Source: a phage. Taken from it: a stretch of 64,000 bases of DNA. Location: assembly GCA_036930585.1 (NCBI GenBank), contig GCA_036930585.1_3066.1. One strand, written 5' to 3'. Position numbers and translations under genes: made by a program. Below the pieces are notes generated by a model, which was not told the origin of the DNA, made no database searches, and was given only the letters and a program-made list of their open reading frames with translations. Each line of letters opens with the position of its first letter. Position 1 is the first letter of the stretch. Positions 38,995-46,184 of the stretch are shown piece by piece.

Positions 38995-40560
38995 ATGACT
39001 ATCAAAACTAAAGCTGAACTTTTGAACAAATGGAAGCCATTACTGGAAGGTGAAGGTTTACCGGAAATTGCTAATAGCAAACAAGCGATTATCGCTAAAA
39101 TCTTTGAAAACCAGGAAAAAGATTTCCAGACAGCTCCAGAGTACAAAGACGAAAAAATCGCCCAGGCATTTGGTTCTTTCTTAACAGAAGCTGAAATCGG
39201 TGGTGACCACGGTTACAATGCTACCAACATCGCTGCAGGTCAGACTTCTGGAGCAGTAACTCAGATTGGCCCAGCTGTTATGGGTATGGTACGTCGTGCT
39301 ATTCCTAACCTGATTGCTTTCGATATTTGTGGTGTTCAGCCAATGAACAGCCCGACTGGCCAGGTATTCGCACTGCGCGCAGTATATGGTAAAGACCCAA
39401 TCGCTTCCGGTGCTAAAGAAGCATTCCACCCAATGTATGGTCCAGATGCAATGTTCTCTGGTCAGGGTGCTGCTAAGAAATTCGCTGCTTTGAAAGCAAG
39501 TGATACTCTTGAAGTCGGAACTATTTACACTCACTTCTTCCAGGAAACTGGTACAGTATATCTGCAAGCTACAGCAGCTAAACAAATTGATTCAGGCGCA
39601 TCTGACGCAGACAAATTAGATGCTGAAATTAAGAAACAAATGGAAGCTGGTGTACTGGTAGAAATCGCTGAAGGTATGGCTACTTCTATCGCTGAACTTC
39701 AAGAAGGTTTTAACGGTTCTACCGATAACCCATGGAATGAAATGGGCTTCCGTATCGATAAACAAGTTATCGAAGCTAAATCTCGTCAGCTGAAAGCTGC
39801 TTACTCTATTGAATTAGCACAAGACCTCCGCGCTGTTCACGGTATGGATGCTGATGCTGAACTGTCTGGTATTCTGGCTACAGAAATTATGCTGGAAATC
39901 AACCGTGAAGTTGTTGATTGGATTAACTACTCCGCTCAGGTTGGTAAATCTGGTATGACCCTGACTCCGGGTTCTAAAGCTGGTGTATTTGACTTCCAGG
40001 ACCCAATCGATATTCGTGGTGCTCGCTGGGCAGGTGAATCCTTTAAAGCTCTGTTGTTCCAGATTGACAAAGAAGCAGTTGAAATTGCTCGTCAGACTGG
40101 TCGCGGCGAAGGTAACTTCATTATCGCTTCCCGTAACGTAGTTAACGTTCTGGCTTCAGTTGATACCGGCATTTCTTATGCTGCACAAGGTCTGGCTACT
40201 GGCTTTAACACTGATACTACCAAGTCAGTATTTGCTGGTGTTCTGGGTGGTAAATACCGTGTATATATCGACCAGTATGCTAAACAGGATTATTTCACCG
40301 TAGGTTATAAAGGTCCGAACGAAATGGATGCTGGTATTTACTATGCTCCATATGTAGCTCTGACTCCGCTGCGTGGTTCTGATCCGAAGAACTTCCAACC
40401 GGTAATGGGATTCAAAACTCGTTACGGTATCGGTATCAACCCATTTGCAGAATCCGCTGCTCAGGCTCCGGCTTCTCGCATCCAGAGCGGTATGCCTTCT
40501 ATTCTGAATAGCCTTGGTAAAAACGCTTACTTTAGACGTGTATATGTTAAAGGTATCTAA
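38995..40560 (+). CDS. 23: major capsid protein gp23
   Basis: 521 aa; MTIKTKAELLNKWKPLLEGEGLPEIANSKQAIIAKIFENQEKDFQTAPEYKDEKIAQAFGSFLTEAEIGGDHGYNATNIAAGQ matches recalled T4 gp23. Confidence 0.97.
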   Translation: MTIKTKAELLNKWKPLLEGEGLPEIANSKQAIIAKIFENQEKDFQTAPEYKDEKIAQAFGSFLTEAEIGGDHGYNATNIAAGQTSGAVTQIGPAVMGMVRRAIPNLIAFDICGVQPMNSPTGQVFALRAVYGKDPIASGAKEAFHPMYGPDAMFSGQGAAKKFAALKASDTLEVGTIYTHFFQETGTVYLQATAAKQIDSGASDADKLDAEIKKQMEAGVLVEIAEGMATSIAELQEGFNGSTDNPWNEMGFRIDKQVIEAKSRQLKAAYSIELAQDLRAVHGMDADAELSGILATEIMLEINREVVDWINYSAQVGKSGMTLTPGSKAGVFDFQDPIDIRGARWAGESFKALLFQIDKEAVEIARQTGRGEGNFIIASRNVVNVLASVDTGISYAAQGLATGFNTDTTKSVFAGVLGGKYRVYIDQYAKQDYFTVGYKGPNEMDAGIYYAPYVALTPLRGSDPKNFQPVMGFKTRYGIGINPFAESAAQAPASRIQSGMPSILNSLGKNAYFRRVYVKGI

Positions 40561-40575
40561 TCTTTGACGATTTAA

Positions 40576-40591
40576 GGGACCTTCGGGTCCC
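40576..40591 (+). terminator. hairpin GGGACC-TTCG-GGTCCC after gene 23 (weak T-run)
   Basis: Perfect 6-bp stem with TTCG tetraloop then CTTTAGTTGTTTTT; likely partial terminator. Confidence 0.5.
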
Positions 40592-40608
40592 TTTAGTTGT
40601 TTTTATGG

Positions 40609-40616
40609 TATAAATA
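40609..40616 (+). promoter_or_regulatory. late promoter TATAAATA (gene 24)
   Basis: Exact TATAAATA 28 nt upstream of ATG 40644. Confidence 0.6.
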
Positions 40617-40643
40617 AATCATATAAACCAAAAGGAAAGCGCA

Positions 40644-41927
40644 ATGGCTAAAATCAACGAACTTCTGCGCGAATCAACCACAACGAATAGCAACTCAATC
40701 GGTCGCCCAAATCTCGTTGCTTTGACTCGCGCTACCACTAAATTAATATATTCTGACATTGTAGCAACGCAAAGAACTAATCAACCTGTTGCTGCTTTTT
40801 ATGGTATCAAATACCTTAATCCAGATAACGAATTTACTTTTAAAACTGGTGCTACTTACGCTGGCGAAGCTGGATATGTAGACCGAGAACAAATCACAGA
40901 ATTAACAGAAGAGTCTAAATTAACTCTCAATAAGGGCGATTTATTCAAATATAATAATATCGTTTATAAAGTATTAGAAGATACACCATTTGCTGATATT
41001 GAAGAAAGCGATTTAGAATTAGCTCTTCAGATTGCAATTGTTCTTTTAAAGGTTCGTCTATTTTCTGACGCAGCGTCAACAAGCAAATTTGAAAGCTCTG
41101 ATAGTGAAATTGCGGATGCTAGATTCCAGATTAATAAATGGCAAACCGCAGTTAAATCTCGTAAACTTAAAACTGGCATCACAGTTGAATTAGCACAAGA
41201 TTTAGAAGCAAATGGATTCGATGCTCCTAATTTCTTGGAAGATTTGCTTGCAACTGAAATGGCGGATGAAATCAATAAAGATATTCTACAGTCTTTGATT
41301 ACAGTATCAAAACGCTATAAAGTTACAGGAATTACTGATACCGGTTTCATTGATTTGAGTTATGCATCTGCACCTGAAGCTGGTCGTTCATTATACCGAA
41401 TGGTATGTGAAATGGTTTCGCATATCCAAAAAGAATCAACTTATACAGCAACGTTCTGTGTTGCTTCAGCTCGTGCTGCTGCGATTCTTGCTGCATCAGG
41501 TTGGTTAAAACATAAACCAGAAGATGACAAATATCTTTCACAAAATGCCTACGGGTTCTTAGCTAATGGTTTACCGCTTTATTGCGATACCAACAGTCCA
41601 TTAGATTATGTAATCGTTGGCGTAGTAGAAAATATTGGTGAAAAAGAAATTGTTGGATCAATTTTCTATGCTCCGTATACAGAAGGTCTTGACTTAGATG
41701 ACCCTGAACATGTAGGTGCATTTAAAGTTGTAGTTGACCCAGAAAGCTTACAACCGTCTATAGGTTTATTAGTTAGATATGCTTTATCAGCAAATCCTTA
41801 TACCGTAGCAAAAGATGAAAAAGAAGCGAGAATAATTGATGGTGGAGACATGGATAAAATGGCGGGTAGTTCAGATTTGTCTGTTTTATTAGGTGTTAAG
41901 TTACCAAAAATTATTGTTGATGAATAA
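40644..41927 (+). CDS. 24: capsid vertex protein gp24
   Basis: 427 aa, gp23 paralog; directly follows gene 23 with an 83-bp gap and no intervening ORF. Confidence 0.95.
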   Translation: MAKINELLRESTTTNSNSIGRPNLVALTRATTKLIYSDIVATQRTNQPVAAFYGIKYLNPDNEFTFKTGATYAGEAGYVDREQITELTEESKLTLNKGDLFKYNNIVYKVLEDTPFADIEESDLELALQIAIVLLKVRLFSDAASTSKFESSDSEIADARFQINKWQTAVKSRKLKTGITVELAQDLEANGFDAPNFLEDLLATEMADEINKDILQSLITVSKRYKVTGITDTGFIDLSYASAPEAGRSLYRMVCEMVSHIQKESTYTATFCVASARAAAILAASGWLKHKPEDDKYLSQNAYGFLANGLPLYCDTNSPLDYVIVGVVENIGEKEIVGSIFYAPYTEGLDLDDPEHVGAFKVVVDPESLQPSIGLLVRYALSANPYTVAKDEKEARIIDGGDMDKMAGSSDLSVLLGVKLPKIIVDE

Positions 41928-41956: not shown

Positions 41957-42961
41957 TTAACTTACCAATTCAATCCAAGCCGGACGAAGTACATCTTGTA
42001 CCATTTTAACTAATTCCTTTTTAATCAGAGAAGGATTATCCGCTTGAGTTAGAGTAATACCTTCACGAGAAGTTTCTTCCAAAATATCTTGAACAGTTAG
42101 TCCCATCACCTTTCCAAAATCCTTCGGACCAATTTCGCCAATTTTAGAAATAACGTTATTTACTCGGTTCAGTGTAACGTAGCAAGCTAAAATTCCCAGC
42201 AATTTATTATCAGCTTCTGACAGCTCAACTTTAGCTTTAATAGGCTTATCAGACTTTTTCTTTTCACTAAATTTAGAGTTCTTGCATTTAATCGCTACGC
42301 GATTGCCATTAGGCATCCAAGAAGGATAACAAGGTTTCAATACATAACCTTCAGCGGTAAATACTTCGCCTTTTGCTTCGGCATTCCAGACGTATTTATT
42401 TGCATCAACTAATCCAGCATGGTCTACTGTAAAATTATAATCTTGAACGACAGAATCTAAATCATTCGGCAATTTAATAAGTTCTTCAAATTTACCACGA
42501 CCCAAAAGTGGAGCCATTTTAAATTTAAATGTATTACAGAATGATTCCATCATATAATCATCGACATAAGTCACATCACCACTTTCGGTAGTAACAATAA
42601 TGTCAAATACATAAAAATCTTTATCGCCATAATCGACATTCTTCTGAATGCCAGGTCCAGCGAATTCGCCAAAGACTTGATAAGATACAACCGCTGAGGT
42701 TTCCATAATATCTTGTACTGCTTTAATAGAATCTTCGTAATTCTTTAGAATAATTTCATACCCAAAGAAATCTTCAGCAGGAAGAATCGGTCCAGTACGT
42801 TTAGCACAAGTAGCTTTATCACGCTCAATAATCAGTGAGAAATTTGTGCCATGAATCTTTTCACGAGCTACCCATTCGCCGCAAGTCAATCCCAAGCTAT
42901 AAAGTTTTTCAATAAATTTAGAGTTGTAATGATTTTCAAGACTGCTATACTTTTTAAACAT
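41957..42961 (-). CDS. rnlB: RNA ligase 2 (RnlB)
   Basis: 334 aa; nucleotidyltransferase motif I KIHGTN; matches recalled T4 Rnl2. Confidence 0.9.
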
Positions 42962-42970
42962 AATTAATCC

Positions 42971-43249
42971 TCAAAATGTAATTTCTAACCAATCACCATC
43001 ACGCTGATCACTATTGACTTTAAAACTAAATCCTTCTTTTCTCAGCCAATCACCAATTTCTTCAGTAATCAATTTATCGCGAGCAATACAATAATAACTA
43101 AAATGTGTTTTACCTTGTTCAGCTGCTTTATTAGCAAGTTCCGAAAAATCTTTAATAAAACACTCTAGCTTAAACTGTTTACTTTTAAGTGCTTTTTCGC
43201 GTAATTGATTAGCAAAAGATTCATTTTCATAAAGATCATACTGTTCCAT
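42971..43249 (-). CDS. hypothetical protein (92 aa), 24.2-like
   Basis: ORF track; position after rnlB. Confidence 0.6.
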   Translation of the reverse strand: MEQYDLYENESFANQLREKALKSKQFKLECFIKDFSELANKAAEQGKTHFSYYCIARDKLITEEIGDWLRKEGFSFKVNSDQRDGDWLEITF

Positions 43250-43451
43250 TTTTCACCTTTTTATTAATATGTCTTTTTCTATAGACAACTTTTTCTCGAG
43301 TCTCAAATTTATTCTTAGCAGTCATAGCTCGAGCCCATAATACAGCCACTTCTTTCGCCTGTAAGTTCAATTCACGAGCAATTTCAATGAATGACTTTCC
43401 AGACTCATGGAGTGTAAACACCACAACCTCAGTTCTCATAATCAATCTCAT
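43236..43451 (-). CDS. hypothetical small protein (71 aa), possible HTH
   Basis: ORF track; GKSFIEIARELNL resembles a helix-turn-helix; 24.3-like by position. Confidence 0.5.
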   Translation of the reverse strand: MRLIMRTEVVVFTLHESGKSFIEIARELNLQAKEVAVLWARAMTAKNKFETREKVVYRKRHINKKVKNGTV

Positions 43452-43508: not shown

Positions 43509-43534
43509 AAAATGAAGAAAGGGGCCGAAGCCCC
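43509..43534 (-). terminator. hairpin GGGGC-CGAA-GCCCC + T-rich tract after hoc
   Basis: GC stem with tetraloop followed by TTTCTTCATTTT on minus strand. Confidence 0.5.
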
Positions 43535-43539
43535 TACGA

Positions 43540-43932
43540 TTATGGATAGGTATAGATGATACCAGTTTCTAAAGCAGTTTTATGAATGATGTATCCATTG
43601 CGCGATTCTTGGACATCAACTTCTGGATAGTCTTTCATCATCTTCTGGAGAGTGTAACGATGCAAGTAGTACTTACTATCTGGATCGTCAGTTTTCCAAT
43701 CTTTACCTTCTTCAGTCATTTTTTGGATTTCATCCATAACCCACCAACCGCACCAGATATAAGCTGAAGTACGATGTGGAAGAGGATGAACATAAGGCAA
43801 TTCGCCATCAACGGTCCAGACAAATGATTCGGTACCTTCAGCTGCAGCACCGGAGCCGGTCGCAGTGAAATTGGTTGTTGCTCCAATAACGGCCGTAGCC
43901 GCCAAAGGAGAAATATTTGCGGTATAAGCCAT
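43540..43932 (-). CDS. hoc: truncated Hoc-like outer capsid protein (130 aa)
   Basis: Occupies the hoc position between 24.3 and inh; about 40 aa of Ig-like-looking N-terminal sequence then ELPYVHPLPHR...IWCGWWVMDEIQ, which resembles the recalled Hoc C-terminal capsid-binding domain. Confidence 0.6.
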   Translation of the reverse strand: MAYTANISPLAATAVIGATTNFTATGSGAAAEGTESFVWTVDGELPYVHPLPHRTSAYIWCGWWVMDEIQKMTEEGKDWKTDDPDSKYYLHRYTLQKMMKDYPEVDVQESRNGYIIHKTALETGIIYTYP

Positions 43933-43941
43933 AAGTTATCC

Positions 43942-44622
43942 TTATTTTAATGTTACGAAAGAAGAATTGCGTGTTTCACGAATTAGAACTGATCCGTCAC
44001 GGTTAATGTAATAAATTAAGCTAAATAAAGTTTGGTGTGCTGACGCGTGTTCAAAACTAGTTGGGTGAGATTTCCAATCCGGAGTTTCAGCAATCCATTG
44101 ATAAATCCACCAAGGAACAGTGCAGAATCCTGGATTTTTTCCAATCAGCTGAAGATTCGGACTAAAGTTTTCCGGAAGAGTAAATACAGACGGCTTTTCA
44201 GATTCAATAATCTCAGCTACAGCTTGTTCAAATTTTTCTTCAACAAAAGGAGTATCTTCAATCAAAACATCGGTATTTTCAGGAATTTTATCCGTTTCTA
44301 CTACTTCAATTTTAATGTCAGATTTAACCGGAGAATCAATCAGAAGTGCTGCCTCTGGATTGACTTCTTCATCGTCATATTTTAATCCGTCTGCAGCATC
44401 AGCAGCATCAATTAAGTCTTTAATAGATAACCCATCAGTCTCTGGCATAGGTTCACTAGCGAGCTTCTGGAGAGCTTCTTCAATATCAGCAACGATATTA
44501 TCAAAAGATTTATTCTTTTTGACCTTTATACCAAACTGTTCAGCATATTCAGCTAATTTAGCTTTAGCTTCTTTGTTATCATCAAGAGCCTTCAGCTCTG
44601 CAATATAATCTTTATCTATCAT
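43942..44622 (-). CDS. inh: inhibitor of prohead protease (Inh)
   Basis: 226 aa, same as T4 Inh; synteny hoc-inh-uvsW. Confidence 0.8.
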   Translation of the reverse strand: MIDKDYIAELKALDDNKEAKAKLAEYAEQFGIKVKKNKSFDNIVADIEEALQKLASEPMPETDGLSIKDLIDAADAADGLKYDDEEVNPEAALLIDSPVKSDIKIEVVETDKIPENTDVLIEDTPFVEEKFEQAVAEIIESEKPSVFTLPENFSPNLQLIGKNPGFCTVPWWIYQWIAETPDWKSHPTSFEHASAHQTLFSLIYYINRDGSVLIRETRNSSFVTLK

Positions 44623-44672: not shown

Positions 44673-46184
44673 ATGACTGACATTAAAGTACATTTTTATG
44701 ATTTTAGTCACGTGAGAATTGATTGTGAAGAAAGTACATTTCATGAACTCCGTGATTTCTTTAGCTTTGAAGCTGATGGGTATCGTTTTAATCCGAAGTA
44801 CAGATATGGCAACTGGGATGGACGAATCCGTCTTTTAGATTATAATCGTCTTCTTCCATTCGGCTTAGTCGGGCAAATTAAAAAGTTCTGTGATAACTTT
44901 GGCTATAAAGCCTGGATTGACCCACAAATTAACGAAAAAGAAGAATTATCAAGAAAAGATTTTGATGAATGGCTTTCTAAATTAGAAATCTATTCAGGAA
45001 ATAAAAGAATTGAACCACACTGGTATCAAAAAGATGCAGTGTTCGAAGGATTAGTTAATCGTCGTAGAATTCTTAATCTTCCAACATCCGCTGGTAAATC
45101 TTTAATTCAAGCTTTGCTTGCGCGATATTATTTGGAAAATTATGAAGGTAAAATTCTTATCATTGTTCCAACAACTGCTCTGACAACTCAGATGGCTGAT
45201 GACTTTGTTGACTATCGTTTATTCAGTCATGCAATGATAAAGAAAATCGGTGGTGGAGCATCAAAAGATGATAAATATAAAAATGATGCACCGGTCGTTG
45301 TTGGTACATGGCAAACTGTAGTAAAACAACCGAAAGAATGGTTCTCACAGTTTGGAATGATGATGAATGATGAATGTCATCTTGCTACAGGAAAAAGTAT
45401 TTCATCTATCATATCAGGTTTAAATAACTGCATGTTCAAATTCGGTTTGTCTGGTTCATTACGTGATGGCAAAGCCAATATCATGCAGTATGTTGGAATG
45501 TTTGGTGAAATATTTAAGCCAGTAACGACTTCTAAGTTAATGGAAGATGGACAAGTAACTGAGCTAAAAATTAATAGTATTTTTCTTCGCTATCCCGATG
45601 AGTTCACTACTAAATTAAAGGGAAAAACTTATCAAGAAGAAATAAAAATTATTACGGGGCTTAGTAAAAGAAATAAATGGATCGCTAAATTGGCTATTAA
45701 GCTTGCACAAAAAGATGAAAACGCTTTTGTCATGTTTAAACATGTATCGCATGGTAAAGCTATTTTCGATTTAATTAAAAATGAATACGATAAAGTTTAT
45801 TACGTATCAGGGGAAGTTGATACCGAAACACGCAATATAATGAAAACCTTAGCTGAAAATGGTAAAGGAATAATTATAGTAGCTAGTTATGGTGTATTTT
45901 CTACTGGTATTTCAGTTAAAAATCTGCATCACGTTGTTTTAGCACACGGTGTTAAATCTAAAATTATTGTATTGCAAACAATAGGTCGTGTATTACGTAA
46001 GCATGGTTCTAAAGCTGTTGCTACAGTTTGGGATCTTATAGATGACGCGGGCGTAGTTTCTAAATCAAAAACATCTTCTAAAAAATACTCGCATTTAAAC
46101 TATCTTTTAAAACACGGCATTGATCGTATTCAGCGCTACGCAGATGAAAAATTTAATTACGTAATGAAAACAGTTAATTTATAA
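44673..46184 (+). CDS. uvsW: UvsW DNA/RNA helicase
   Basis: 503 aa; Walker A PTSAGKS; DEAH-type box MMNDECH. Confidence 0.9.
   Translation: MTDIKVHFYDFSHVRIDCEESTFHELRDFFSFEADGYRFNPKYRYGNWDGRIRLLDYNRLLPFGLVGQIKKFCDNFGYKAWIDPQINEKEELSRKDFDEWLSKLEIYSGNKRIEPHWYQKDAVFEGLVNRRRILNLPTSAGKSLIQALLARYYLENYEGKILIIVPTTALTTQMADDFVDYRLFSHAMIKKIGGGASKDDKYKNDAPVVVGTWQTVVKQPKEWFSQFGMMMNDECHLATGKSISSIISGLNNCMFKFGLSGSLRDGKANIMQYVGMFGEIFKPVTTSKLMEDGQVTELKINSIFLRYPDEFTTKLKGKTYQEEIKIITGLSKRNKWIAKLAIKLAQKDENAFVMFKHVSHGKAIFDLIKNEYDKVYYVSGEVDTETRNIMKTLAENGKGIIIVASYGVFSTGISVKNLHHVVLAHGVKSKIIVLQTIGRVLRKHGSKAVATVWDLIDDAGVVSKSKTSSKKYSHLNYLLKHGIDRIQRYADEKFNYVMKTVNL

Follow-up and report, generated by a model that had tools for sequence, protein, structure and literature searches.

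The hoc locus of the window

The stretch of 64,000 nucleotides analysed here, hereafter the window, has a Tequatrovirus backbone with about 97.7% identity to many database phages and near-identity to none. It carries the block 23-24-rnlB-24.2-24.3-hoc-inh-uvsW, with the gene order of T4, Salmonella phage SG1 and BYEP01. Gene 23 (38995..40560, plus strand) encodes the major capsid protein, in which residues 326-344 are the docking segment for Hoc, and is followed by gene 24 (40644-41927, plus), rnlB (41957-42961, minus), 24.2 (42971-43249, minus), 24.3 (43236-43451, minus; DUF2774, E 4e-31), the gene at the hoc position (43540..43932, minus), inh (43942..44622, minus; PHROG 1051 'inhibitor of protease', E 1.5e-102), which lies upstream of hoc and is co-oriented with it, and uvsW (44673-46184, plus). 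Genes 23 and 24 are separated by a gap of only 83 nt (40561-40643), and the homing-endonuclease gene segD, present there in T4, is absent. The longest ORF of 24.3 encodes 71 aa, the gene being annotated as 56 aa in T4 and 67 aa in SG1, and translation probably begins at residue 5, an internal Met.

The hoc position, occupied by genes for 376 aa in T4, 470 aa in SG1 and 283 aa in BYEP01, holds in the window an ORF of 130 codons plus stop, running from ATG to stop on the minus strand, which we call mini-hoc. The ORF list and the matching of the quoted sequence bear out the 130-aa product that the initial annotation had placed between 24.3 and inh, and the T4 annotation agrees with the 376 aa it had given for T4 Hoc. 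The encoded protein has a mass of 14.7 kDa, a pI of 4.91 and a net charge at pH 7 of about -7 (-14 for T4 Hoc), and it shares the acidic character of Hoc (pI about 4-5). It matched the PHROG profile of Hoc-like head decoration proteins with an E value of 1.9e-61 and the T4 Hoc chains in the PDB with 1.2e-64, and its alignment with T4 Hoc and other T-even Hocs (283, 376 and 470 aa) also identified the ORF as Hoc-related. By these similarities the 130-aa ORF is clearly a Hoc, far beyond chance, and not a random reading frame.

In GenBank the protein is EMK4141246.1, 'hypothetical protein [Escherichia coli]', on a contig of 166,205 bp, and its 90% cluster contains no other protein. Mini-hoc is a singleton allele: the exact 28-nt junction described below had no match in IMG/VR, GTDB representative genomes or JGI metagenomes, its codon-degenerate form W[ST]VDGELPYVH had none in IMG/VR or JGI metagenomes, and a search of complete E. 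coli genomes gave no match. Among the matches listed from 50,697 phage records, every span exceeds that of the window by at least 460 bp, and at 23 IMG/VR loci there was no hoc ORF with fewer than 95 residues before the anchor. Since it comes from a single assembly, mini-hoc could conceivably be a minority or culture-derived variant.

The signals that flank the gene are intact. A Shine-Dalgarno sequence, AAGGA (43939..43943, minus), lies 6 nt before the ATG and overlaps the inh stop codon; within the 40 nt upstream of the ATG, the last 33, Shine-Dalgarno included, are identical to T4, with one mismatch at -34. On the 3' side of hoc, a terminator scan located an intrinsic terminator, GGGGC-UUCG-GCCCC plus a T-run (43510..43535, minus), whose hairpin and T-run are identical to those of T4 and SG1. 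Because inh ends only 9 nt upstream of hoc, co-transcription of the 2 genes is probable. A search for a late promoter upstream of inh returned only TATAAATA-like motifs with 1 mismatch, not above chance, and transcription of mini-hoc is predicted from conservation.

Capsid anchor, Ig remnant and the junction between them

Hoc is the textbook Ig-fibre decoration protein, the basis of the 'bacteriophage adherence to mucus' model and a display scaffold. Its capsid-binding domain comprises T4 residues 281-376, folded as a sheet of four strands together with a bundle of three helices (Fokine et al. 2023, PMC10385173). Contact with gp23* is made by Y293, H295, H299, R300, Y304, W306, W309, W310, Q354, the loop E355-S-R-N-G359 and Y360, and D313 and R357 form a structural pair (PMC10385173). 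Codons 43-130 of mini-hoc (43543..43806, minus) correspond to T4 Hoc 289-376, and their product matches SG1 Hoc with 100% amino acid identity and T4 Hoc with 98%, which confirms the proposed resemblance of the C-terminal part to the Hoc capsid-binding domain. The only part of that domain missing is the 8-residue linker 281-288 (AKVAPEPE). In the alignment, all listed gp23-contact residues are kept at an offset of -246, the mini-Hoc equivalents being Y47, H49, H53, R54, Y58, W60, W63, W64, D67, Q108, E109-G113 and Y114.

Structure prediction pointed to the same domain. In an AF2 model computed from an alignment of 23 homologues, the anchor has pLDDT values of 84-90, falling to 54-61 over residues 31-60, where the first strand of the anchor also lies; the residues before the anchor form two isolated strands with a pLDDT of about 75. 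Foldseek against the PDB gave a sole significant match, 8t1x_X, the C-domain of T4 Hoc on the gp23* capsomer (E 2e-11), and no Ig structure was matched by the model. At the nucleotide level, the anchor differs from those of SG1, BYEP01, T4 and phage WFK by 5-13 synonymous and 0-2 non-synonymous changes, with 0 non-synonymous changes against SG1. Such a pattern fits strong purifying selection on the anchor domain and does not date that selection relative to the deletion.

Hoc docks as a monomer in the middle of expanded gp23* hexamers, and the partner surface is conserved as well. The gp23 encoded in the window is 96% identical to T4 gp23, and its segment 326-344 (G326-R344), the docking segment for Hoc (PMC10385173), reads GSKAGVFDFQDPIDIRGAR, identical to T4 and including D336 and R344. 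Almost all 19 differences between this gp23 and that of T4 fall elsewhere, in residues ~136-205 (window 39400-39600), for example FAALKASDTLEVGT vs FPALAASTQTTVGD, and this region looks like a variable surface patch.

An Ig domain is a sandwich of about seven strands, and one Hoc Ig unit takes about 93-95 residues. Residues 1-42 of mini-Hoc (MAYTANISPLAATAVIGATTNFTATGSGAAAEGTESFVWTVD; codons 1-42, 43807..43932, minus) are collinear with the start of Ig domain 1 in the alignment with the Hocs of 283, 376 and 470 aa. HMMER places this stub on T4 Hoc 1-43, and it covers approximately strands A-C, that is, ~3 of the ~7 strands. The approximately 40 Ig-like residues reported in the initial annotation do match the start of Ig domain 1, but they are not of T4 type: nucleotides 1-126 are of the JS98/RZ/fDHCT2 type, with 96.8% nucleotide identity to fDHCT2 hoc and 2 amino acid differences, compared with 58% identity to T4. 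Scoring the anchor against 1.84 billion cluster representatives yielded 136 family proteins, in which the numbers of residues before the anchor cluster near 0, 95, 185, 280, 370 aa and so on; 42 aa fits none of these size clusters, and the stub therefore cannot be a whole Ig domain. With only 42 residues before its anchor, mini-Hoc carries no complete Ig fibre. It had been suggested that most display domains were lost in frame while the anchor was kept; the in-frame loss and the intact anchor hold, but the loss extends to all folded domains and not just to most of them.

A Pfam scan of the mini-Hoc ORF returned no domain match, Ig included; Pfam has no family for the Hoc anchor, and the stub is too short for the Ig model. 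The half-domain is hydrophobic (GRAVY +0.48), and such an exposed half-domain could lead to misfolding or proteolysis. A claim of relaxed selection on the stub was dropped because counts of synonymous and non-synonymous changes do not inform on it, given that non-synonymous changes are about as frequent as synonymous ones in Ig domain 1 even between intact Hocs.

The different ancestry of the 2 parts is visible along the DNA as a mosaic patch of ~130 nt, in which the first 126 nt of hoc are of the JS98/RZ/fDHCT2 type (Dhakavirus/Gaprivervirus-like) and the flanks, inh upstream and the hoc anchor downstream, are of T4 type (97-98%). Judged by nucleotide similarity, the gene is a mosaic of a JS98/RZ-type start of domain 1 and a T4-type anchor in a Tequatrovirus backbone.

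At the protein level the 2 parts are joined as WTVD|GELPYV, within the junction peptide FVWTVDGELPYVHPLPHR, and the window DNA across the junction reads TGGACCGTTGATGGCGAATTGCCTTATG. The junction itself is the heptamer GATGGCG (43803..43809, minus; CDS nt 124-130, codons D42-G43-E44). In hoc genes of the fDHCT2 type this heptamer is found at both breakpoints (left, GTTGATGGCGTTCC; right, CCAGATGGCGAATTACC), which lie at GTTGATGGCG|TTCCT on the left and CCAGATGGCG|AATTACC on the right, and the local alignments of the 5' and 3' parts to fDHCT2 hoc overlap at nt 123-130. The presence of GATGGCG at both ends suggests a microhomology-mediated in-frame deletion, either illegitimate or by slippage. 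The sequence downstream of the junction is of T4 type, and the T4-type linker, GAAGGTG, matches the heptamer at 5 of 7 positions, so that the homology of 7 nt is exact only if the linker of the parent was fDHCT2-like. A search for the parent allele of mini-hoc did not find it. The same allele of domain 1 precedes architectures of 2, 3 and 4 Ig domains in IMG/VR, and a deletion of about 0.46-1.0 kb is therefore possible.

Short Hocs in other phages

Published Hocs have 1 to 10 Ig domains, and a fusion of anchor and lipase in reversed order is on record (PMC10385173); a 'variant Hoc' with 2 Ig domains is also described (PMC11853027). The literature searched contained no account of Hocs with the anchor alone or with half a domain. 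T4 Hoc (PDB 8t1x, 5vf3) shares with mini-Hoc the inh-hoc-24.3 locus, an anchor that is 98% identical, all the gp23 contacts, and the ribosome-binding site and terminator, but it has three complete Ig-like domains forming a 180-Angstrom fibre (PMC10385173), whereas mini-Hoc retains 42 residues of one domain, which derive from a different, JS98/RZ-type allele. The natural length variants, which include 1-Ig Hocs of about 180-190 aa, the PhiPNJ-9/BYEP01 type (283 aa, 2 Ig), the SG1 type (470 aa, 4 Ig) and Muldoon (1174 aa, 10 Ig), share with mini-Hoc the modular design of a conserved C-terminal anchor and a variable N-terminal part (PMC10385173; PMC11853027). These variants differ from one another by whole Ig domains, whereas mini-Hoc breaks within a domain and has no foldable Ig unit.

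Mini-hoc is unusual as an allele and not unique in kind. An independent mini-Hoc of 133 aa, P0003, turned up in two unrelated samples with the same neighbouring genes (L007:716-1117, ENA ERZ19219169, and L008:713-1114, SRA DRR256985). It joins residues 1-45 of a T4-type domain 1 to the anchor through a 720-nt deletion at a TCCA microhomology, and a further deletion of 9 nt removes the conserved FTA of strand B. The isolate Escherichia phage vB_EcoM_WFK (Mosigvirus) encodes a Hoc of 164 aa, annotated as a hypothetical protein (L004:1501-1995), in which domain 1 breaks off after residue ~73 (KVVATNT) and the chain continues with VPEGELPYV, and in P0006 (182 aa) one Ig domain is fused directly to YVHPLP.

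Genes that consist of the anchor with no Ig residues occur directly after inh in other T4-like lineages (L010:4001-4288, L011:4001-4321, L012:92-412 and L013:543-836). The L010 product has 95 aa and those of L011-L013 have 97-106 aa, and each of these genes has a GGAG ribosome-binding site and is preceded by a terminator hairpin. In L010, two opposite-strand genes, for proteins of 268 aa and 352 aa (the latter with a weak collagen match), lie between the anchor-only gene and 24.3. Of the 136 representatives, ~10% lack an N-terminal Ig domain, some of them being fragments or proteins with reverse domain order.

Like mini-Hoc, the anchor-only P0030 (95 aa) and P0027/P0028 (97-106 aa), together with P0003 and the WFK protein, have the anchor without a complete Ig domain and are encoded after inh. 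P0030 and P0028 have only 12-20 non-Ig residues before an anchor that is 63-68% identical to that of mini-Hoc, P0003 and WFK have a T4-type domain 1 and other breakpoints, and none of these proteins has the mini-Hoc junction. With no complete Ig domain, its place at the hoc locus and its own translation signals, the window ORF fits a grouping of anchor-only Hocs, which is ad hoc and not a curated family. The phages that are null for hoc (T2, with a fragmented gene, and T4 hoc amber or deletion mutants) resemble the mini-hoc phage in the expected loss of the fibre phenotype; in them no anchor is made or attached, whereas the anchor ORF of mini-hoc is intact and in frame.

The probable product and its alternatives

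We consider it likely that mini-hoc is an in-frame internal-deletion allele of hoc whose fibre-less product is made and docks on the hexamer centres. The parent would have encoded an ordinary Hoc whose Ig domain 1 was of JS98/RZ type, followed by one to three further Ig domains and a T4-type anchor. The microhomology deletion, of ~459 nt for a two-Ig parent or ~1020 nt for a four-Ig parent, would have brought codon 42-43, within the C-C' part of domain 1, up against the Gly that precedes ELPYVHPLP at the start of the anchor. Mini-Hoc would then be made late from the unchanged inh-hoc signals and would dock with one molecule on each gp23* hexamer, using its intact beta-sheet base and ESRNG loop, and displaying a floppy peptide of 42 residues instead of the 180-Angstrom Ig fibre. 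Hoc also contributes a charge cloud proposed to help dispersal. The phage would be expected to lose the fibre functions, that is, adhesion to mucin or cell surfaces and much of the dispersal-aiding charge cloud, with the hexamer centre still occupied. The expression, folding, capsid binding and phenotype of mini-Hoc are all predictions from the sequence, by which the protein is probably made and bound at hexamer centres without a fibre.

Work on related proteins bears on the docking step. N-terminal fusions to Hoc leave its Kd and copy number unchanged (review PMC3012670), and an N-terminal appendage of 42 residues should therefore be tolerated. The non-Ig domain 4 of PhiPNJ-9 Hoc alone does not bind MUC2 (PMC11853027).

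It is unlikely, although plausible, that mini-hoc is a dead remnant, in which neutral decay has left a truncated protein that is unstable or does not bind, so that the phage is effectively hoc-null. The gene is dispensable, its null mutants being fully viable (PMC3012670), T2 and SV76 have fragmented hoc genes according to their annotation, and frameshifted C-terminal hoc ORFs are present in databases (P0008, P0010). Retention of the frame alone is no proof of function, since a random deletion is in frame 1/3 of the time, and the AF2 confidence is low at the junction and the first anchor strand. Decay of this kind fits poorly, however, with an anchor that is complete from the residue preceding its first strand, keeps all its contacts and has 0 non-synonymous changes against SG1, with the intact translation signals, with the tolerance of Hoc to N-terminal fusions (PMC3012670), and with the anchor-only Hocs that have their own ribosome-binding sites at the hoc locus of other lineages.

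A different reading takes the anchor-only state as adaptive: the fibre would be shed and the hexamer plug kept, with length switched by microhomology deletions, and the benefit might be less immunogenicity or unwanted adhesion, or protection of the hexamer centre. We hold this to be very improbable. In its favour, in-frame deletions that keep the anchor arose independently in the window allele, P0003, WFK and P0006, two of them breaking at most 3 codons apart in domain 1, Ig-less Hocs are found at the hoc locus in at least 2 other lineages, and an N-terminal Ig domain is missing from ~10% of the 136 representatives. These cases are nevertheless subject to ascertainment bias, the anchor having been the search query, and the breakpoints are clustered because the stretches coding for VPQDG and PEPEG are locally similar. 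In addition, the window allele is a singleton, and neither the 23 IMG/VR loci nor the listed phage-genome matches, by the figures given above, contain a comparably short hoc. A comparison of P0027 and P0028 gave 0 synonymous and 6 non-synonymous differences, with no sign of purifying selection.

An assembly or sequencing artefact, through collapse of the Ig repeats or a chimera of two co-assembled T4-like phages, is hardly credible: the phage contig does lie within a bacterial isolate assembly labelled Escherichia coli and the gene combines two hoc types, but the junction does not fall between equivalent repeat positions, a chimera needs two switches within 130 nt, reading frame, ribosome-binding site and terminator are intact, and comparable deletions occur in independent samples and isolate genomes. 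Repeat collapse by the assembler was rejected, as repeats within the parental hoc genes reach 76% identity at most and share no long perfect match, and the breakpoints have only 7 nt in common, far below an assembler k-mer. An engineered T4 hoc-deletion contaminant was rejected too, the backbone having only ~97.7% identity to any database phage and the stub not being of T4 type.

Mini-hoc is a rare deletion variant of a well-known dispensable gene of variable length and no new system. Under the favoured reading of a fibre-less, docked Hoc, a phage carrying it would be a natural control that separates effects of the fibre (mucin binding, dispersal, immunogenicity) from occupancy of the hexamer centre, and the last 88 residues of Hoc may suffice as a minimal display tag. 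The evolution of hoc length would then involve deletions at short homologies, besides the gain and loss of whole domains. A broader proposal assigns the Hoc anchor its own function, for instance as a cap or mask over the centre of the gp23 hexamer; T4-like phages would repeatedly lose the whole fibre through microhomology deletions under selection that retains the anchor, and the anchor-only form would be a maintained alternative state and not decay. We regard this as quite doubtful.

The neighbouring gene provided a separate observation on the anchor. BLASTP of Inh against Hoc gave no match, and only profile-profile comparison detects a relation: with hhalign, the C-terminal ~60 residues of Inh (~160-221) align with the Hoc anchor with a probability of 92.7% and an E value of 4e-7. 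The PHROG Hoc profile also matches Inh 135-219 weakly (E 0.007). We found no mention of this homology in the literature searched. In the alignment, Inh PWWIYQWIAETPDWK...IRETRNSS is paired with Hoc GWWVMDEIQKMTEEGKDWK...VQESRNGY, and the 2 proteins share WW, DWK and E(S/T)RN motifs. These similarities suggest a tandem pair of paralogues, inh and hoc, with a gp23-binding module in common. If Inh does carry such a paralogous module, it would represent a reusable capsid-targeting domain.
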